From Vicinamibacterales bacterium (lineage in GTDB: Bacteria; Acidobacteriota; Vicinamibacteria; Vicinamibacterales; JAMQPK01), in the NCBI GenBank assembly GCA_963730445.1, contig CAVSRX010000004.1:73539-137538 (forward strand): a stretch of DNA of 64,000 nucleotides, read 5' to 3'. The notes under the pieces are model-generated. The model was not told the origin of the DNA and did no database searches. It worked only from the letters and a program-made list of their open reading frames with translations. Of the stretch, positions 2,792 through 63,993 are shown piece by piece. How positions within the stretch are numbered: the first letter of the stretch is position 1; the number at the start of each line of letters is the position of its first letter. A program made the position numbers and the translations under genes.

Positions 2792-5410
2792 ATGATGAAG
2801 ATTCGATGGCCGTTCGTGACGCAGAAACGCGATGACGACATGTCGCAGGAGATGGCGTTCCACATCGAGTCGACCACACGCGACCTCGTGCGCGGGGGCA
2901 TGAGCGAACGGGATGCGCGGCTCGAAGCACGGCGCCGATTCGGCAGCGTGCTCAAACAGAAAGAAGCCGGCCACGAGATCAGGGTCGGACGGGTTCTCGA
3001 AGACATTCTGCGCGACGCGCGCTTCATGTCGCGAGGCTTGCGCCGCAGCCTCGGCTTCACTGCCGCCGTCGTCCTCACGCTCGCGCTGGGGATCGGCGCC
3101 AACACCGCTATCTTTTCCGTCGTCGATCAGCTGTTGCTTCGCCCGCTTCCATATCCGGAGGGCGAGAACCTGCTGATGGTGTACGAGGAATTTGTCGGTC
3201 CTCGTGCCGGTTTGGGCGATCGGCTTTTCGCCTCGCCCGCGAACTGGCTCGACTGGCAGCGCGAGAATCGTACGCTCGAAGGGTTGGCCGCCTGGCGGAC
3301 GCTGCCTATCACCCTGACAGGCGCAGGCGAAGCCACACGATTGAACGGGCAGCAGGTCTCCCATGAGTTTTTCGCGCTGTTGCGAGTCAAGCCGCTGCTT
3401 GGCCGCACGATATCAGAAGACGACGACCGTCCCAATGCGCCGCGCGTCGTCGTGATGAGCCATCGTCTGTGGCAGACGCGGTTCGGCGGCGACTCGAATA
3501 TTCTCGGTCGATTCATCCAGCTGAACGATCGGCCGTTTCAAGTCGTCGGCGTCATGCCTGCCGGCTTCCGCTTTGTCTATCAGGACAACGATCTGTGGGG
3601 CGCCTACCAGCTGAATCGTAATCAGACGTGGCGTCAGACCGACGGCCGGTTCATCAACGTGATGGGACGGACGAAAACCGGAACGACCATCGATGCGGCA
3701 CGATCGGATATGCAACGGATCGCCCAGCGCCTCGCGTCGATCCATGAGTTCAACAAGAACACGACCGTTAACGTGATATCGATGCGCGAGCAACTCACCG
3801 GGCAGGTGTCAACCTCGCTCGTCGTGCTGTATATCGCGGTTGGCGTGCTGCTCTCGATCGCCTGCTTCAACATCGCGAACCTGCTGCTCGCCAGGGCCGC
3901 ATCGCGGCGTCATGAAATCGCCGTGCGCACCTCACTCGGCGCCGGACGGCTGGCCATCATCAGACAACTGCTTGTCGAAAGCGTCCTGCTCGCGCTCGCC
4001 GGAGGAGCGCTGGGCATCGCGCTGGCGCGCTGGAGCCTCGATGCGCTGCTCGCGTTCGCGCCGCCCGATCTCCTCGGCGTGTCCGAGCTGACGATCGATG
4101 CGCGTGTGCTGCTCTACACGGTGGGGCTGTCTCTTGTGACCGGCGTCATTGCGGGACTCGCGCCGGCGGCCACGGTGGCCCGCCGATCGATTGTCGCATC
4201 GCTGCGGACCAGTAACTCACGCGTCACGCAGTCGCCCCGCATTCGCCAGGCGCTCGTGGTCGGCCAGGTTGCGATGACCGTCGTGCTGCTCTGCGGCGCC
4301 GGCCTGCTCGCGCGAACCGTGATGGCCTTGAACAGCGTCAACAACGGTTTCGACAAATACGGACTTGTGACGATGGAGGTGGGGCTGCCGGGGGCCCGGT
4401 ATCCTGCTGAGCGGCGCGTTGCGTTCTATCGCGATGCGTTGGCGTCGATTGAAGCTCTTCCGGGCGTGGAATCGGCGGCGGCGTCCAACAGTCTCCCGGT
4501 ACTTGGTTCGCCACGTGCGGGCAGCTGGTTTCATCGTCGCGGCACGCCGGAGTTGCAGACGGGCCAGCGGCCGATCACCTTGATTCGTGTTGTCACGCCG
4601 GGATACTTCCGCACGCTGCGCATTCCGCTCCTTCGTGGGCGCGACTTCACGCACGCCGACGAGGCGAATCCCGCGCCCGGGTTCATCGTGAACGAGGCGT
4701 TCGTCAAGGAACATCTCTCTGGAGTGGATCCGCTTGCCGAGTCGATTACGGTGTGGATGCAGAACGAAAACCCTTACGCGCCGATTATCGGCGTGGTCGG
4801 CGATGTCAGTGAGGGATCGGCGCGAGACAACCCGAAGCCTACTGTCTTTTACAGCCACGGTCAGATGCGGGAAATGAGCATGACGCTGTTCGTGCGATCG
4901 AGCCGCCCGGCGTCGACAGGGGATGCGGCTATCGCGGCGATACGCCGCATCGATTCGAATCTGCCCGTCACGAAGGTTCGCACCTTCGAGGGGGCGCTGG
5001 CGGAGAGCATTGCGCAAGAGCGGCTCAGCGCACTTGTGGTCGGCGCCTTCGCCATCACCGGTCTGCTGCTCGCGGCGCTGGGGTTGTACGCGCTGCTCGC
5101 ATTCCTCGTCGCCGAGCGCACGAGAGAGATCGGTCTTCGCATCGCGCTTGGCGCGCACGGCGCGGAGCTGACATGGTCGGTCGTACGAGATGGGTTGTGG
5201 CTCGTGGCGATCGGCGCGGCAGCAGGCGTTGCGCTTTCGCTCGTCATGCTGCCGTCGTTCGGGACGCTGCTGTTCGGCGTGAAGCCCCACGACATCACAA
5301 CGTATGCAGTCGTCCTGACACTGCTCGCGGCTGTTGCCGGACTCGCGTCGTACGTGCCCGCCCGCCGTGCGGCCCACGTGCAGCCGCTGACGGCGCTTCG
5401 GCAGGAGTAG
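2792..5410 (+). CDS. ADOP-family (duplicated MacB/FtsX) permease
   Basis: Intact 872-aa ORF with permease prefix domain and two MacB_PCD/FtsX halves. Confidence 0.93.
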   Translation: MMKIRWPFVTQKRDDDMSQEMAFHIESTTRDLVRGGMSERDARLEARRRFGSVLKQKEAGHEIRVGRVLEDILRDARFMSRGLRRSLGFTAAVVLTLALGIGANTAIFSVVDQLLLRPLPYPEGENLLMVYEEFVGPRAGLGDRLFASPANWLDWQRENRTLEGLAAWRTLPITLTGAGEATRLNGQQVSHEFFALLRVKPLLGRTISEDDDRPNAPRVVVMSHRLWQTRFGGDSNILGRFIQLNDRPFQVVGVMPAGFRFVYQDNDLWGAYQLNRNQTWRQTDGRFINVMGRTKTGTTIDAARSDMQRIAQRLASIHEFNKNTTVNVISMREQLTGQVSTSLVVLYIAVGVLLSIACFNIANLLLARAASRRHEIAVRTSLGAGRLAIIRQLLVESVLLALAGGALGIALARWSLDALLAFAPPDLLGVSELTIDARVLLYTVGLSLVTGVIAGLAPAATVARRSIVASLRTSNSRVTQSPRIRQALVVGQVAMTVVLLCGAGLLARTVMALNSVNNGFDKYGLVTMEVGLPGARYPAERRVAFYRDALASIEALPGVESAAASNSLPVLGSPRAGSWFHRRGTPELQTGQRPITLIRVVTPGYFRTLRIPLLRGRDFTHADEANPAPGFIVNEAFVKEHLSGVDPLAESITVWMQNENPYAPIIGVVGDVSEGSARDNPKPTVFYSHGQMREMSMTLFVRSSRPASTGDAAIAAIRRIDSNLPVTKVRTFEGALAESIAQERLSALVVGAFAITGLLLAALGLYALLAFLVAERTREIGLRIALGAHGAELTWSVVRDGLWLVAIGAAAGVALSLVMLPSFGTLLFGVKPHDITTYAVVLTLLAAVAGLASYVPARRAAHVQPLTALRQE

Positions 5411-56063: not shown

Positions 56064-56780
56064 TAGTCGGCGTGAGGCGGTATAGGCCGAGATGCCCGCG
56101 GATTCATCGGCAGCACGTGGCTCTCCGGTTCCTTCTTTTTGAACCAGTCGGCGAGTCGCATGATGACGCCGCGCTTTTCGGGCAGAATATCCTGCAGTTG
56201 AAGGAGCACCTCGATAGCTTCCTCGAGACGATGGACGACACCGACGCCGCGCTCGGTGGCCTGCTGTTCGAGCGCCGTGTCGCCGATCTGAAGCAGAAGA
56301 ATCGCCTTCGTCTGTGAGGCGCCGACCACCTCGAGACAATTCAGAAACTGATCGTCGATGACGACATCGAGGCGCAGGGCATTGGCAATCTCGCCGCGCG
56401 AGCCCGGAACGGTCACGACCGCCGGCATGTAGAAGCCGTAGGCCTCGAGCCACGCCTGGCTCTGGAACTGCACCGAGTCTCCGGCTGTGGGAATGCGCGA
56501 GGTGAGAAACGACACCTCCCACCGATAGCGTCGTGCGAGCTGGTAGAGACGCGCGATCTGCGCGGGCTCGTACGGCGCGAGCCCCAGCCACCAGTTCGGT
56601 GTCTCGGTGATCACGCGCCAGACGCGCTTCGCGTCGGCGGCAGACACGGCGTCGAAATCCGGCATTGGCGCCGAAGGACGGCTGAATGGCGTCCTTTCCC
56701 AGCAGCTTGGCGGCCGCGTCGAGAAATGCCGTTCGAAAATCCGCAACCACGCCATCGAGATCGAAACCGATTCGAAGCAT
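56063..56780 (-). CDS. HAD-superfamily hydrolase (NT5C-like), frameshift near 56690
   Basis: MLRIGFDLDGVVADF motif I, FLTSR motif II, VIDD motif IV. Confidence 0.8.
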
Positions 56781-58170
56781 TATTGGTTGCGCATCCCTCG
56801 CGGCTCTGCGGAGCCGCACGTGGCGATACCCGCAAGCATGGCGAACAGCAGCGCGTTAGCCGGCATCGTCAACCCGGTTTCCCAGATGCTCTGCACCATG
56901 ACGCCCGCCATGCCCGCGCATGCGCCGGCCCTGATGAGATAGTTCGATGACAAATCCTGTTTGAGGCTGCGACCAGCCAGCACGAGGAAGAGCCCCGCTG
57001 CGAGCGCCGCCGGCAGCAGAAGCCACGCGCCTCCTTCAGCCATCAATTGCAGGTAGTGGTTGTGAGCTTGGTCGATAGCATAGCCGGGTTCCGCCGTCTG
57101 GTAAACGTTGATGGCCTTGCCAAATGTGCCGGCGCCGGTGCCGGTCACGGGAAAATCCTCGATCGAGCCTGGACGGCGTCGCCCCAGATGGCCACGCGTC
57201 CGCGTCCTTCCTGCGCGCGCGTGATCGATTCATCGACCCGCCGCAGCAGCATGTCGTAGTTGGCGAACCACAGCACGACCAGCGCGAGCAGCGCGAACTG
57301 GAAGATCACCCAGCGTCGCACTGCCAGCGTCGCCGCGCCGCCGTGTCAGCACCGTGCTGAGCAGCGAAGGCGCTCATCAACCCGATCAGCCCCGATCGCG
57401 AGGCCGAGAGCATGACGGCCAGCGTCATGACGCACACAGCGACCACGAGCCAGATGCGTATCGTTCCCAGCTGCTTCAGCGCATTCGCGACCCGTTGCGA
57501 AAAATGATGCGGAGATTCTTTGCGCGGCGCCCGGGCCAGCAGATAGCCGAAGGCGAGCGGGCACGCCATGATGATCCACGTCGCCATGTGATTGCGGTTG
57601 ACGAACGGGCCGTACGGGCCGCGCGCCGGTATCGAGCGGGCGCCACACGCCGTACAACATATCGATTCGCTGCGCGCGCTGGACGATGGCGGCGACCGAT
57701 GCGATGAGGCCGATGAACGCGATGACGCGCACGATGCGTCCGGTGCCTCCTTCTTCGCACACCTGCCGGCACATCCAGAACATGAGGATCGCGGACAGCG
57801 AAGATGCCAACCGCTGCGAGCGTGTCGATCGGCGCGATGCTGATCGGAATCCAGGGGAGATTGGATGGCGGTCACGAGCGGCGGCAGCCACAGCGCGGTC
57901 CTCACCGCAATCGCCTGCGGATCGAACACCCGGATCAGCGCGGCCGGCATCGGCACGAGCTGAACAAGGCACGCGACCACGACGGCTATCAACGTGAGGT
58001 CGAGTGACGCGGAAACGCTTGTCGCGGACGACGTCGGGCCGCAAGGCGAGCGCCAGCCCGAGGAGCAGGCTCGCCGCGGGCACCCAGACCCATGGGTAGA
58101 CACCTCCGGCGAGGAACGTGGCCCACGCGAGCACCACCGCCAACCACGTCGCGGCTGGAGGGTAGGACGC
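56780..58170 (-). CDS. O-antigen ligase family membrane protein, several frameshifts; start uncertain
   Basis: GGVYPW, GPFVNRNH, SASRSG, GTGAGTF, AHNHYLQLMAEGG. Confidence 0.82.
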
Positions 58171-58171
58171 G

Positions 58172-60433
58172 CTACGCCGCGTTCGATCGGACGTAGTAGT
58201 TCTTGTACTTGTAGCCGTAGTAGCGCGAGTAATAGTACTTGTTGCGGACGATGTCAACCCGGTTGAGCACCGCGCCGAGCATGTGCGGGCGGCTCGTCAT
58301 GCAGCGTTTCAACCGCGCGCTCCGCAAGCCTGCGCTGCGTCATCTCGGAGCCGATGATGAACACCACGCCCGACACCCAGGGCGCGATGATCACGGCGTC
58401 GGTGACGGCGAGCACGGGCGGCGTGTCGATGAGGACCCAGTCGAACGGACCGCTCTGCACGTTGCTGATGAGCGTCTTCATGCGGTCCGACGCGAGAAGC
58501 TCGGATGGGTTCGGCGGCGTCATGCCCGCGGTCATCACCCACAGGTTCTGCACGCTCGTCCGCCGGATGGTCTGACGCGCGGTCGCCTGACCGGTCAGCA
58601 GGTGCGACAGGCCGATCGTGTTCTCGATGCCCAGCGTGCGCGACACGCTCGGCCGGCGCATGTCGGCGTCGATGAGCAGCACGCGCGAGCCGCCGTACGC
58701 CAGCGCGATCGCCATGTTGCACGCCGTCGTCGTCTTGCCTTCGAGCGGCTGCGCGCTGGTGAGCGCAATGACGCGCGTGCCTTCGCTGCCGCTGCTGAAC
58801 ACGAGCGACGTGCGGAGGGCGCGGAACGCTTCGCCGAATTCGTGCGGCACTTCCTGCGACAGCAGCGGGTGATTGTTGCCCTTCACCGCGGGCACGAGAC
58901 CCAGGAAGGGCAGCTTCAGGCGGCGCGTGATGTCTTCAGGCGTCTTCACCGTATCGTCGAGGTAGTCGATCGCCAGCACCAGCCCGAGCGCCAGCAGGAT
59001 GCCCGCGAGCGCGCCCAGCATGAAGTTGCGGCGGATGTCTGGTGTAAACGGAGAGCCCGGCACGACCGCGCGGTCCATCAGGCGCACGTTGTTGCCGCCG
59101 CTGTTGCTGACAATCTGCAGCTCGTTCTGCCGCTGGATCAGCGAGTCGTAAATCTGCCGGTTGCTCTGCGCTTCGCGCTCGAGCACGGTATAGCCCACGC
59201 TCTTGCGGCTGAGATCCATCGCCGCGCCTTCAGACTGCTTGAGGGCTTCGCCGAGGCGCCGTTCTGTCGCCAGCGCTCCCTCGTATTCGTTTCGGATCTG
59301 CTGCACCGCCGCGACGCAGCGCCGCCTGATACTGCTTGTTCGTGTCGGCGATCGCGTTCTCGTTTTCGATGACCTGCGGGTGCTTCGGAAGGTAGCGCTC
59401 GTTGAGCTGCACTTTCTGGCGCTGCAGCTCGGCCATCCGCGTGCGGAGGGTCGTGACCGTGGCGTTCGAATTCACCGCAGGCGCATCGGCCAGCTGTGCC
59501 GGCGACAGCGACCTGATCTGGTTGTACATCGCTTCTTTCTGGATGCGCTCGGTGCGCGTCCGCGTGTACTGGTCGTTCACCTGCGTGAGGTTGGCGACCA
59601 CCGTGTTCTGCCGGTCTTCGAGCGACAGCGCGTTGTTCGTTTCGCGATACTCCGCCATCGCGCGCTCGCTGGCTTCGACCTTCGCCTGCTGTTTCTTGAT
59701 TTCGTCGGCGAGGAACTGCAGGCTCTTGGCGGTTGCCTCGGTGCGCCGCTCGAAGTTCTGCTTGACGTACTCTTCGACGAGCACGTCGGCGGCTTTGGCC
59801 GCAAACACGGGATCGGCCGACTGCACCGATACGTTGTAGAGCCGGCTGCCGCGCACGGGATCGATTGAGACCGCGCCGAGGAAATTGTTGACGAGCGCGT
59901 CGGCGTCTCTGGTGGCGCGCGCCGATGGCAGCATCGGAGGTGTGCCGCCGGTGGCCCGCGCCATCGCGCCCTGCGCCTGCCGCTTCATCGTGTCGAGCAC
60001 CGAGGCCAGGCCGGTCCGTTGCGGGCCCTGGCCGTTGAACTCGGGTACGGCGGCGAGGTTGAGCCGCGCCACTACCTTCGTCGCGAGCTCGCGGCCGTTC
60101 AGAATGCGAATCTGCGTCTGGTAGTACGGTTCGGGGTCGGAAATGTATTCGTTGTTCGTCGCAGTGTTGAATCCGGCGACCGATGCCGACGCGTTCGTCC
60201 TCGATGAGCACGCTCGTGGTCGCGCGGTACATCGGCGTCGTCGTGAAGGTGCGCACCGCCACGGCAAGCAGGACGAGGAGAAATACGGTGACGACAACGT
60301 AGCGATATTTGTAGATGGCGTTGACGCGATCGAGGATGTGCGTATCCGAATCGGTAGGAAACAGACCTTTACCGACGGCACGTTGCGGCGCCTTTGCCGT
60401 TGCGGGAGCTGCTGGTCTCTCGTTCTGGGCCAT
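58172..60433 (-). CDS. wzc: Polysaccharide co-polymerase / BY-kinase (Wzc), frameshifts near 60190, 59315 and 58300
   Basis: Wzz-like N-terminus, YLPKHP, EAFRALRTSL, SAQPLEGKTT, IDADMRRP, PPNPSELL, DTPP, Tyr cluster NKYYYSRYYGYKYKNYY. Confidence 0.92.
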
Positions 60434-60498
60434 CGCTATCGTGATTATCTGCTCGTAACTATCGGCAGAGTGTCTCCGGCGCAACAGAGACGCCAGAC

Positions 60499-61189: not shown

Positions 61190-62128
61190 ATGGAGAATCA
61201 ACGAATTCGCGTGTTCGCACCTGCCACCGTTGCCAATATTGGGCCAGGTTTCGATGTGCTCGGTTTGGCACTGAGCAGCCCGGGCGATCTGCTCGATGCC
61301 GAGCTTACAGACACCCCCGGCGTGGAGATGGTCGAGATTACGGGAGACGGCGGGCGGTTGAGCCGTGACGCGATGAAAAATGTGGCCAGCCGCGCCGCCG
61401 CCGATGTGCTCCGGCGCGCGGGCAGCGCGAAGGGGCTGCGCTTGTGGTTGCACAAACAGATGCCGCTCGCGAGCGGGCTCGGAAGCTCGGGCGCCAGCAG
61501 TGCCGCGGGCGCGGTCGCCGCGAATGAAATCCTCGGGCGTCCGCTGTCGCCGCGCGACGTCGTGTTGAGCGCGATGGAAGGGGAGTGCGCCGCGTCGGGA
61601 ACGCCCCACGCAGACAACGTGGCGCCGAGCGTAATGGGCGGATTCGTCCTCGTGCGCAGCTACGACCCGTTCGAGATCGTTCAGCTTCCGGTACCGGACG
61701 GCCTACGCGTCGCCGTCGTCCATCCACACTGCCAGGTGTCGACCGCCGAGGCGCGGCGGCTCGTCAAGGAACGCACCTACGGCCTCGACGTAATCGTGCC
61801 CAATATCGGCAGCGTCGCGGCGCTCGTCGCGGCACTTTATCGCGGCGATCTTCCGCTGCTTGGCCGCAGTATCGACGATCGCATCATCGAGCCGCTGCGC
61901 GCGACGCTGATACCCGGGTTTGCCGCGGTGAAGAACGCCGCATTCGGCGCGGGCGCGCTCGGCTGCTCGATTGCCGGGTCGGGGCCTTCGGTGTTCGCGT
62001 TCGCGGATGATGACAGCGCAGCGCAACGCATCGGCGCGGCGATGCAGGCGGCATTCAAGTCGGCCGCATCGCTTGACAGCGATCTTTTCTGGGGAAAGGT
62101 GAGCTCTGAAGGCGCGCGCGTGATATGA
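61190..62128 (+). CDS. thrB: Homoserine kinase (GHMP family)
   Basis: APATVANIGPGFDVLG, PLASGLGSSGAS, HADNVAP, IAGSGPS. Confidence 0.93.
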   Translation: MENQRIRVFAPATVANIGPGFDVLGLALSSPGDLLDAELTDTPGVEMVEITGDGGRLSRDAMKNVASRAAADVLRRAGSAKGLRLWLHKQMPLASGLGSSGASSAAGAVAANEILGRPLSPRDVVLSAMEGECAASGTPHADNVAPSVMGGFVLVRSYDPFEIVQLPVPDGLRVAVVHPHCQVSTAEARRLVKERTYGLDVIVPNIGSVAALVAALYRGDLPLLGRSIDDRIIEPLRATLIPGFAAVKNAAFGAGALGCSIAGSGPSVFAFADDDSAAQRIGAAMQAAFKSAASLDSDLFWGKVSSEGARVI

Positions 62129-62901
62129 GCTCGAACCTGCGCTCGCGCGCGTACGATGTTCTGAGGCGCGCCAAAGGCCCATCGCGGTGGCGAGCCGCGT
62201 GCCTGTACTTCGGGGCCGGGTTACTGACGGTCAGTGATTTTCGTCCTTCAAATGTCGCCAGGTGGGAGGCATACGACGACGAAAATCCCGGGCTGGTGAC
62301 GTGGGAAGACCAGGCGTACCGAACCGTGATGCGGTTGTCAGACCGTGTGCTTCTCATCGGCTGCGGCACCGGGCGCGATCTGCTCGCCTTACGACAGCTC
62401 GGGTACGACGTGACAGGACTCGAGCAATCCACTGCGCTCGCCGATCAGGCGCGAGCGACGCTTTCCCACCATGGGCTGCCGACCGAGGTTATTCCCAAGG
62501 CGATTGAGTCGTACACCTCACGCGACGCGTTCGACGTCATCGTCTTCTCGCCCTATACCTATTCCTATATTCTCGGCATGGCATCACGCGTGGCAATTCT
62601 GAAGAGGCTGCGCGAATGCTTGTCACCTCAGGGGAGGGTGATCATCAGCTACCCGGCTTTGATACGGCAGTCCTCACTGTGGATCTTCCTTGCGCGTGTC
62701 AGCAGCGTGTGTGTCGGCAGCGACTGGTGGCCGGAGGCCGGAGATCGTTTGTACGGGCCGCCGTCGCTTCCGAAAGCGCTGGGTTTCGAACATCAGTTTT
62801 CACCTGACGAGCTGGCGCGCGAGTGTGAGATGGCAGGCCTTGATATCGTTCGTGACGAATCGATCAGTTCGTATTTCCGGTTTGCCGTTGTCACCGTCTG
62901 A
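62125..62901 (+). CDS. Class I SAM-dependent methyltransferase
   Basis: VLLIGCGTGRD, FDVIVF, LSPQGRVIIS; ATGA overlap with thrB. Confidence 0.82.
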   Translation: MSSNLRSRAYDVLRRAKGPSRWRAACLYFGAGLLTVSDFRPSNVARWEAYDDENPGLVTWEDQAYRTVMRLSDRVLLIGCGTGRDLLALRQLGYDVTGLEQSTALADQARATLSHHGLPTEVIPKAIESYTSRDAFDVIVFSPYTYSYILGMASRVAILKRLRECLSPQGRVIISYPALIRQSSLWIFLARVSSVCVGSDWWPEAGDRLYGPPSLPKALGFEHQFSPDELARECEMAGLDIVRDESISSYFRFAVVTV

Positions 62902-63835
62902 GAACGGCGGTGTCGGCAATCACCGCGTTGCACACGTCATCCAGGCGCGACAATCTGCGTGGATAGGCGAGCCTGCGCAGGGGCACGTCCCGAACCAGCC
63001 GGGTCGCGGTGTTGAACTGACTTGTCAATCGCGTGCGATCCACGCGAATCAGATTGAATGCCGCCCGCGTGATTTCAAGAAAGGCCTTCTCGCCTTCGAG
63101 CGCCGTGATGCCGATTCGCGCGGCGCGCCGTCCGGGTCTGGGCAGAACGTACAGCGCTCTGAGGGGAATCGGACGACTGCTCGCCTCCGTCCCTCTGAGG
63201 GGTAGGAGGAGCTTCGACGTACCTGCGTTGAGGTGCATCCCGTCGGCGCGCGCGAGTATCTTCCGCGCCGCGGACGGAAACAGCTTCAGGCGGGGAGGTC
63301 CTGCATGCGCAAACCAGCGCCCGTCACGCACCTCCAACGCGAGGATATCGTCGGTGAGAATTGGGAACCCCCGTGCGAGAAACGCGGCCCCGAGTGTCGA
63401 CTTTCCATACCCGCAGTCGCCGAGAAACGCGACCGCTTCACCGTCGATCACCACCGCCGTCGCGTGCAGGGGCTCACTTCCGCGCGACAACAGCGAGAAC
63501 GACAGGACTTGTCCGAGCAGGTACGTCGTGAGCGATTCGTCTGTGGCACCGTCGAGGGCGAGGTATTCGATCGTGCGTGCGTCGGCCGAGATCAGGAATT
63601 CGAAGAGGCCGGACCACTTAAGGTAAGTAGCGCCGCCTCGAAGACGGTGGCATTCGAACCACTGCGGTTTCGAGGGAGGACGAAGCAGCCTGCGCGCGTT
63701 CTCGAACCGGCGCGCCACGCCCGGCCGCAGCCGGACGTCCGTTGGTGCTCCTCTGCTTGCCGTCGGACACGAGAGGGGCATTGCGGCTTCCAAGACGAGA
63801 CCGTAGACACGGTATCGCCTGGCGGTCGCGCTCAC
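62891..63835 (-). CDS. HPr kinase-related P-loop kinase, putative RiPP (lasso peptide) kinase
   Basis: YRVYGL start, LHATAV, GDCGYGKST Walker A, LTDD; GTGA overlap with upstream precursor peptide. Confidence 0.85.
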   Translation of the reverse strand: MSATARRYRVYGLVLEAAMPLSCPTASRGAPTDVRLRPGVARRFENARRLLRPPSKPQWFECHRLRGGATYLKWSGLFEFLISADARTIEYLALDGATDESLTTYLLGQVLSFSLLSRGSEPLHATAVVIDGEAVAFLGDCGYGKSTLGAAFLARGFPILTDDILALEVRDGRWFAHAGPPRLKLFPSAARKILARADGMHLNAGTSKLLLPLRGTEASSRPIPLRALYVLPRPGRRAARIGITALEGEKAFLEITRAAFNLIRVDRTRLTSQFNTATRLVRDVPLRRLAYPRRLSRLDDVCNAVIADTAVLRR

Positions 63836-63993
63836 GCGTTTGCGCCGGTCGTCTTTGTCTTGGGCTTGCCGGTGCCGTCGGCGCTTGCTCCGCCCTTGGC
63901 CGCCGTGAGTTTCCGGAAGTCTCCGTGAACTTTCAGCGCCGGTGCACGGTACGGGCGTTTCACCGAAGCCCGCGGTTCAATTTTGCGCTTCAT
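63832..63993 (-). CDS. Lasso-type RiPP precursor peptide (53 aa; not in the ORF track)
   Basis: Hand translation: MKRKIEPRASVKRPYRAPALKVHGDFRKLTA-AKGGASADGTGKPKTKTTGANA*; leader YxxPxLxxxGxxxxxTx, core Ala1 and Asp8. Confidence 0.88.
   Translation of the reverse strand: MKRKIEPRASVKRPYRAPALKVHGDFRKLTAAKGGASADGTGKPKTKTTGANA

Follow-up and report, generated by a model that had tools for sequence, protein, structure and literature searches.

An HprK-like kinase gene coupled to a lasso precursor in a Vicinamibacterales genome, with a conserved tail threonine as candidate phosphate acceptor

The precursor and kinase genes

The DNA analysed here (the window) is a 64,000 nt stretch of the genome of a soil acidobacterium in the Vicinamibacterales (assembly GCA_963730445.1, contig CAVSRX010000004.1, positions 73,539 to 137,538), which carries close to its end, on the minus strand, the gene of a lasso peptide precursor followed by that of a kinase resembling HPr kinase/phosphorylase (HprK/P). 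The precursor gene (63832..63993, ATG at 63993..63991, TGA at 63834..63832) encodes 53 aa, of which residues 1–31 form the leader (63901..63993), with the motif Y15-x-x-P18-x-L20 and Thr30 at position -2, and the remaining 22 aa form the core AKGGASADGTGKPKTKTTGANA (63835..63900), with a predicted eight-residue ring closed between Ala1 and Asp8. It displays the features by which lasso precursors are recognised, namely the YxxPxL leader, Thr(-2), Gly or Ala at core position 1 and Asp or Glu at positions 7–9, and it passed the NCBIfam leader model NF033521 (lasso_leader_L3) with 23.2 bits against a cut-off of 19. The core was defined by the usual Thr(-2) leader cut, which places A or G at position 1 in 100 of the 114 family cores described below. 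A cut directly after the Thr, giving a nine-residue ring, was rejected, since position 1 would then be variable and bulky (M, Q, R, K, L, A). The hydroxyl residues of the core are Ser6, Thr10, Thr15, Thr17 and Thr18, and its C-terminal residue is Ala.

The kinase gene (62891..63835, minus strand, GTG at 63835..63833, TGA at 62893..62891) encodes a full-length protein of 314 aa in an unbroken frame, which aligns end to end with its relatives. Read from the open reading frames (ORFs), its GTG start codon overlaps the TGA stop codon of the precursor in the sequence GTGA (63832..63835). A four-base overlap of stop and start is by itself frequent in operons; it is meaningful here because the spacing of precursor and kinase is conserved, with the conserved N-terminal motif of the kinase beginning 14–25 nt past the precursor stop codon in 10 distinct readable loci of the genus and 17–59 nt past it in four loci of other phyla, and with the identical GTGA overlap in one genus-mate (G015).

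The catalytic residues of HprK-like kinases are all present. His124 lies in the motif LHATAV (codon at 63464..63466) and was invariant both in an alignment of 17 kinases and in one of 109; the P-loop G139-D-C-G142-Y-G144-K145-S146-T147 (63395..63421) was recognised from the alignment of relatives, and is followed by the metal-binding pair Asp162-Asp163 (63347..63352), invariant in the aligned kinases. Within the 109 sequences, H124, G144, K145, D162 and D163 showed no exception, and the spacing from the His to the DD motif is identical to that of BsfK (H148-G163-G166-G168-K169-S170-D186-D187, numbering as given in PMC10368454). An AlphaFold model built from the 109 sequences had a predicted local distance difference test score (pLDDT) of 96.3 and a predicted template modelling score (pTM) of 0.93. 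Foldseek searches with this model matched phosphoenolpyruvate carboxykinases (PEPCK) over both domains (template modelling score, TM, 0.58 on the query) and the HprK/P structures 3tqf, 1kkl and 1jb1 over the catalytic domain (TM about 0.6 on the target), with E values from 1e-6 to 6e-5. A hidden Markov model (HMM) profile of 17 relatives similarly matched the HprK/P chains 3tqf, 1jb1, 2qmh and 1ko7 over residues 121–184 (E 1e-8 to 1e-6). The model has the HprK/P-PEPCK fold.

Since the precursor's start codon lies only 7 bases from the end of the window, the contig was read further for the remaining genes; positions in the resulting locus (L001) equal the window position minus 61961. A lasso cyclase gene (NF033535, PF00733) lies directly past the end of the window, upstream of the precursor and on the same strand. 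Divergent from it are genes for a PqqD chaperone (NF033536, 77.9 bits) and for a nucleotidyltransferase of the PF14907 family NTP_transf_5, to which PsmN belongs (103.3 bits against a cut-off of 31.2), with a D-x-D motif (EDTDLL). No ABC (ATP-binding cassette) exporter is among the annotated cluster neighbours, no search having been aimed at exporter families. The kinase therefore stands next to a precursor and together with a PqqD-type recognition element (RRE), as is characteristic of the HprK-like kinases of lasso and other peptides that are made ribosomally and modified post-translationally (RiPPs), and by its gene content the precursor and tailoring kinase belong to a predicted paeninodin/pseudomycoidin-like lasso cluster. 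The identities of the genes, the catalytic residues, the fold, the make-up of the cluster and the conservation patterns given below are established.

An earlier note on this DNA, made from the letters of the window, had described an HprK-like kinase whose gene is coupled to that of a lasso precursor through a shared GTGA, H-A, GxxGxGKST and DD motifs in the kinase, and a core ending ...TTGANA with the five hydroxyl residues listed above and no C-terminal Ser. The ORF coordinates agree with the overlap, the motifs correspond to His124, G139–T147 and D162–D163, the description of the core was exact, and the pairing of a lasso precursor with an HprK-like kinase is confirmed by the leader model, the kinase motifs, the fold and the genes of the cluster.

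Conservation of the precursor family

Two sets of homologues were compared, a close set of 59 precursors, 57 of them with a readable core, and a wide set from a profile search, with 114 distinct cores that are each 15 residues or longer. The leader residues Y15, P18, L20, G24 and T30 are invariant in the 59 close homologues. All 57 close cores share K2, G4, D8, G9, K12, P13 and T15 and have K or R at position 16, and 46 of them are 22 aa long. The other hydroxyl positions are less constant: Ser or Thr occupies position 10 (Thr10 here) in 42 of the 57, position 17 in 38 and position 18 in 45, while Ser6 is Ser in only 13. The last residue of the close cores is A in 36, T in 8, S in 7, G in 3 and E in 3, and that of the 114 wide cores is A in 52, K in 19, G in 12, T in 11, S in 9 and another residue in 11.

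In the wide set, a script found a Ser or Thr followed by Lys or Arg ([ST][KR]) after the ring acceptor in 113 of the 114 cores, most often as TK (72) or TR (36), with SK in 4 and SR in 1. The pair lies seven residues past the acceptor in 95 cores, six in 14, eight in 1 and three in 3, the last of these likely being mis-registered. The single core missed by the script reflects mis-registration of the regular expression, and by eye ends ...MTRL. A group of 23 cores ends two residues after the conserved Thr (...T-R/K-K). Position 8 is D or E in 108/114 cores, and position 3 is Gly in 109/114 and Ser or Thr in 1/114.

Starting from the precursor, 400 further Acidobacteriota genomes were searched; 41 contained matches, and 29 of these loci were fetched. 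An HprK-like kinase lies within 1.5 kb in 22 of the 29, and Ser is the last residue in none of the 21 readable precursors of these 22 loci. By our own reading, a pair of a basic and a hydroxyl residue occurs near the end of about 12/22 kinase-linked and 2/7 kinase-less precursors, a comparison that is too weak to use because the flanks extend only 1.5 kb.

The ends of these precursors recur between assemblies. A precursor with 98% identity on another contig has an identical core, one with 91% identity ends TTGTNA, and relatives on contigs named k141_ and NODE_, which suggests other assemblers, likewise have no final Ser. A frame artefact at the end of the precursor was rejected, because independent assemblies share the same or nearly the same end, and the absence of a C-terminal Ser reads as a trait of the family and not as an artefact.

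A tail threonine as the proposed phosphate acceptor

The lasso kinases PadeK, ThcoK and SyanK are reported to act on the linear precursor and to place the phosphate on its C-terminal Ser, a residue described as the conserved feature of their precursors (PMC9266682, PMC8498205). PsmK likewise phosphorylates a C-terminal Ser, after which PsmN places a hexose on the phosphate, and the authors of that study suggested that the bulky group may lock the lasso (PMC6993621). Ring phosphorylation has also been reported, as BsfK (2023) modifies Ser3 of a precursor ending in Asp and is stimulated by the B1 protein (PMC10368454), and LppK (2026) modifies Ser3 of linear peptides (PMC13381572). The C-terminal Ser, which the earlier note took as the usual one for such kinases, is consequently no longer a general rule.

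In the family described here, both the C-terminal Ser and Ser3 are excluded as general acceptors and Thr15 is the sole invariant hydroxyl of the core; for these reasons we propose Thr15 (Thr46 of the precursor; codon at 63856..63858, minus strand) as the acceptor. We give about an even chance to phosphorylation of Thr15 by the kinase while the precursor is still linear, followed by decoration of this phosphate by the nucleotidyltransferase. Following this proposal, the precursor would be translated and the kinase made from the same message through the coupled stop and start codons, and the PqqD protein would bind the YxxPxL leader. The kinase, with its predicted HprK/P fold and intact His-Lys-Asp-Asp set, would move a phosphate from ATP onto the linear precursor, most likely onto Thr15 in the Thr-Lys/Arg pair seven residues past the ring Asp8; the PsmN-like nucleotidyltransferase (PF14907) would then probably add a further group to the phosphate, and the cyclase would close the Ala1-Asp8 ring. 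That the peptide is the substrate, which residue is modified and the order of the steps are what we infer, the characterised relatives acting on the linear precursor and PsmN on the phosphate according to PMC9266682 and PMC6993621.

The earlier note had inferred a new regiochemistry, on internal Thr or Ser residues, possibly at multiple sites in KPKTKTT. The absence of a C-terminal Ser on which this was based extends to the whole family, but a site away from the C-terminus is not new in itself, BsfK and LppK already using Ser3; as position 3 is Gly here, it is a Thr in the tail that would be a third type of site, and this makes the proposal partly new. Multiple sites in KPKTKTT find no support in the conservation, as only Thr15 is invariant in the 57 close homologues. 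The worry that read polishing could still give a Ser-terminated core is very unlikely to be justified, independent assemblies having the same end.

We further suggest, tentatively and as a rather unlikely extension, that the clade of this kinase represents a third regiochemistry, in which the acceptor would be an internal Thr of the tail, part of a Thr-Lys/Arg pair set at a constant +7 from the ring Asp, and the decorated phosphate would serve as the upper steric plug and the Lys or Arg as the lower one. With equal reserve, the tail would otherwise consist of small residues and the knot would be held by the post-translational modification. A Thr15/Lys-Arg16 pair straddling the ring would fit both the constant spacing from the ring and the short members, which end two residues after the Thr. 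The Phe19/Tyr20 pair of microcin J25 offers a likeness for such an arrangement.

A number of observations weigh against phosphorylation at Thr15. The kinase scores below the curated thresholds of the HprK families, with 18.4 bits against a cut-off of 33.3 for PF07475 (Hpr_kinase_C; E 0.0016, kinase residues 122–172) and 40 bits against a curated cut-off of 200 for TIGR04352 (HprK-related kinase A). The invariant Thr-Lys/Arg pair could instead be kept for threading, recognition by the cyclase or binding of a target, and positions 17 and 18 are also rich in Ser and Thr. A kinase tree of 42 rows, to which PadeK, ThcoK, PsmK and BsfK do not belong, speaks for the proposal, but weakly. It placed the kinase in a clade of 23 rows (support 100/99) with the [ST][KR] pair in all 22 rows that have a readable core, and the tails differ in the remaining clades, where they read ...GQRPRP, for example, or have a basic residue and then Ser or Thr near the end; this counts as consistency only, because related sequences share features by descent. 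Finally, the lasso pathway may be inactive in this genome, because the B2 leader peptidase (PF13471) was not found in the locus, the cyclase gene (L001 2016-3949) is read in three frames, with profile positions 1–100, 102–180 and 180–668 on three ORFs, and the NTP_transf_5 gene (L001 ~4157-5400) is read in two.

Alternative explanations

The kinase could phosphorylate the precursor on another hydroxyl, or on several, with positions 17–18, Thr10 or a terminal Ser or Thr as candidates. The frequency of Ser and Thr at positions 17, 18 and 10 would allow this, as would the 20/114 cores that end in Ser or Thr, and multiple phosphates are possible with known lasso kinases. However, none of positions 10, 17 and 18 or the last residue is invariant, the short members ending ...T-R/K-K have no hydroxyl beyond the conserved Thr, and the known polyphosphorylation stacks on one residue and is not spread over several. 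We regard modification of these other hydroxyls as possible but unlikely.

A second alternative, which we hold to be no more probable than the first, is that the cluster is a decaying remnant in this genome, in which B2 has been deleted, the cyclase and nucleotidyltransferase genes are truly frameshifted, and no lasso peptide is made. In its favour is the loss of B2. Compared with the closest relative (kinase 76% identical), 401 bp holding B2 are absent between L001 4265 and 4266 (contig C4 ~139764), while the flanks align to that relative free of gaps with 87% and 83% identity, and B2 is kept in 10/10 loci of the genus and in 21 of 25 wider loci. In the closest relative, B2 sits between PqqD and the nucleotidyltransferase, and as a result of the gap PqqD here terminates within the final codons of what was the B2 frame. 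The only gene of this genome above the PF13471 cut-off is an orphan of 132 aa on another contig (L022 1444-1842, contig C20 71528-71923), next to ORFs for a putative PadR-type regulator and a putative ABC permease; among the 25 relatives searched its nearest match is 43% identical, and none has a close orthologue. This orphan might nevertheless substitute for the missing cluster B2, and even with B1 and B2 left out, pseudomycoidin is reported to have been produced in E. coli and B. subtilis (PMC6993621).

The frame breaks speak less clearly for decay. The cyclase gene has two, near L001 3438 and 3658, but rpoB and rpoC of the same assembly (contig C8 269841-276854), which are necessarily functional, are each split in two frames as well. 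Since these essential genes are likewise split, single-base frame breaks are most simply explained as assembly errors, which weakens a reading of them as marks of pseudogenes. The precursor of the closest relative is also frame-broken, after KPKTK, and in the present genome the precursor, kinase and PqqD genes are intact with all their conserved residues. The genome is 87% complete and consists of 21 contigs. At large, many of its long genes are read in two to four frames, including that of glutamate synthase (L001 7257-12018), pointing to frequent indel-type errors, and its gene calls should be treated with caution.

It is considerably less probable that the kinase acts on a molecule other than the peptide, such as a sugar or another protein, or works as a phosphorylase; a different substrate had also been named as an option in the earlier note. 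This could be argued from the low scores against the curated HprK families, from a precursor with neither a C-terminal Ser nor Ser3, and from the size of the HprK-like superfamily, which has 17,941 representatives at E <= 0.001, 8,696 at <= 1e-10 and 332 at <= 1e-30. Opposed to it are the tight coupling of precursor and kinase, preserved both within the genus and across other phyla, the correspondence between kinase clades and tail motifs, and the precedent that all characterised HprK-like kinases in PqqD-containing RiPP clusters are reported to modify the precursor.

That the true precursor ends in Ser, hidden by an indel or base error, is hardly credible: the assembly does contain frame errors, and a one-base error gave the psmA database sequence a terminal Asn in place of the true Ser (PMC6993621), but the core is identical on a second contig and its end nearly so in other assemblies, with Ser ending just 9 of 114 distinct cores and a length of 22 aa in 46 of 57.

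Distribution and neighbouring genes

The kinase was matched in 39 of the 61 genomes searched (this one counted), including 17 of 24 genus-mates. The set of cyclase, precursor and kinase with PqqD and NTP_transf_5 is present in 10/10 loci of the genus, adjoining sulfite reductase, and the 25 wider loci, labelled as 6 phyla, have the cyclase in 24 and NTP_transf_5 in 22. Distant relatives of the kinase occur in Gemmatimonadales, Methylomirabilota/Rokubacteria, Nitrospirales, Terriglobia and one Euryarchaeota metagenome-assembled genome (MAG). A family with the putative third site would span uncultured soil phyla, comprising Acidobacteriota, Gemmatimonadota, Methylomirabilota/Rokubacteria and Nitrospirota.

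Several of these loci have features of their own. The Euryarchaeota-labelled chromosome of the MAG (L058) has a kinase with 29% identity to the present one together with a cyclase and a lasso-type precursor (...LTRGGSGHNPEIQRPPGSRII), which could result from gene transfer or mis-binning. Five Methylomirabilota/Rokubacteria loci (L042, L047, L052, L054 and L056) have two asparagine-synthase-like cyclase genes in tandem upstream of the precursor-kinase pair, and one locus (L033, genome G006, contig C138) contains two cyclase-precursor-kinase sets about 10 kb apart with different core peptides. A multi-pass membrane protein of 527 aa with no Pfam match is encoded between PqqD and B2 in four genus-mates (L026 9165-10748 and counterparts in L027-L029), and is absent from this genome.

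On the downstream side of the kinase lies a gene for an S-adenosylmethionine (SAM) methyltransferase (62125..62901, plus strand; Pfam Methyltransf_25 and related families), which is convergent with the kinase gene, overlaps its 3′ end by 11 nt and is preceded by a homoserine kinase gene. Its best NCBIfam matches, both below the cut-off, are CpaM and the daptide RiPP methyltransferase. Homologues were found near the cluster in 6/10 loci of the genus and 5/25 wider loci (L025-L030, L035, L042, L045, L047 and L051, from the genus and other phyla), and in the Nitrospira locus L045 the methyltransferase gene runs in the same direction as those of PqqD, B2, the cyclase, the precursor, the kinase and the NTP transferase. 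The methyltransferase may be a further tailoring or accessory gene of the cluster. Beyond the cluster are genes for sulfite reductase and glutamate synthase, assigned by reading the translations and by synteny. Elsewhere in the window, at 56780-58257 and 58254-60484, the ORF list shows two putative genes, one for a membrane protein of the O-antigen-ligase type and one for a chain-length determinant of the Wzz/tyrosine-kinase type, which are seemingly split over overlapping frames.

Significance and comparison with known systems

Known lasso peptides tailored by kinases amount to a handful of cases, with two reported acceptor positions, the C-terminal Ser and Ser3. If the proposal is true, a large uncharacterised family of abundant soil bacteria with an invariant internal Thr-Lys/Arg pair would add a third type of site, and could show whether phospho-glycosylation acts as a steric lock of the lasso, the idea raised for pseudomycoidin. 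For annotation, the assumption that a kinase implies a C-terminal Ser is unfit for judging precursor calls, because none of the 21 readable kinase-linked precursors from Acidobacteriota ends in Ser. In the literature we found no description of this precursor and kinase family or of a lasso peptide phosphorylated on Thr; kinase-linked clusters have been noted in Acidobacteriaceae (PMC10368454), and Supplementary Figure S14 of that paper, on Acidobacteriaceae kinase-linked precursors, may overlap with the present family.

Compared with HprK/P itself (1kkl, 1jb1, 3tqf, 1ko7), the kinase shares the fold of the catalytic domain and the P-loop. Unlike it, HprK/P has the protein HPr as its substrate, and the sequence similarity is confined to about 60 residues, the N-terminal half being different. 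LppK and the linear polyphosphorylated peptides of Bacillota come with an RRE, an HprK-like kinase and an NTP transferase, as here, but the system as described has no cyclase, uses a signal-peptidase-like protease and has its site at Ser3. BsfK of Bradymonas sediminis also acts on a precursor that does not end in Ser, and has the same spacing of the H, G-x-x-G-x-GKS and DD motifs; its reported target is Ser3 and its leader has Ile(-2), whereas the present family has Gly3 and the usual Thr(-2). PadeK, ThcoK and SyanK are HprK homologues with the same His-Lys-Asp-Asp set that act on a linear lasso precursor, but the C-terminal Ser that they are reported to need is not found here, where the core ends in Ala and Ser ends only 7/57 close and 9/114 wide cores.

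The closest likeness in gene content is to the pseudomycoidin cluster of Bacillus pseudomycoides, as described in PMC6993621. It differs in that PsmK uses a C-terminal Ser, which is not conserved in the present family, and the pseudomycoidin-type cluster (C, A, K, B1, B2, N, D) has the B2 gene that is missing here and comes from another phylum with another precursor family. Shared by the two are the cyclase, the precursor, the HprK-like kinase with its DD metal site, the PqqD-type B1 protein and the PF14907-type NTP transferase with its D-x-D motif.

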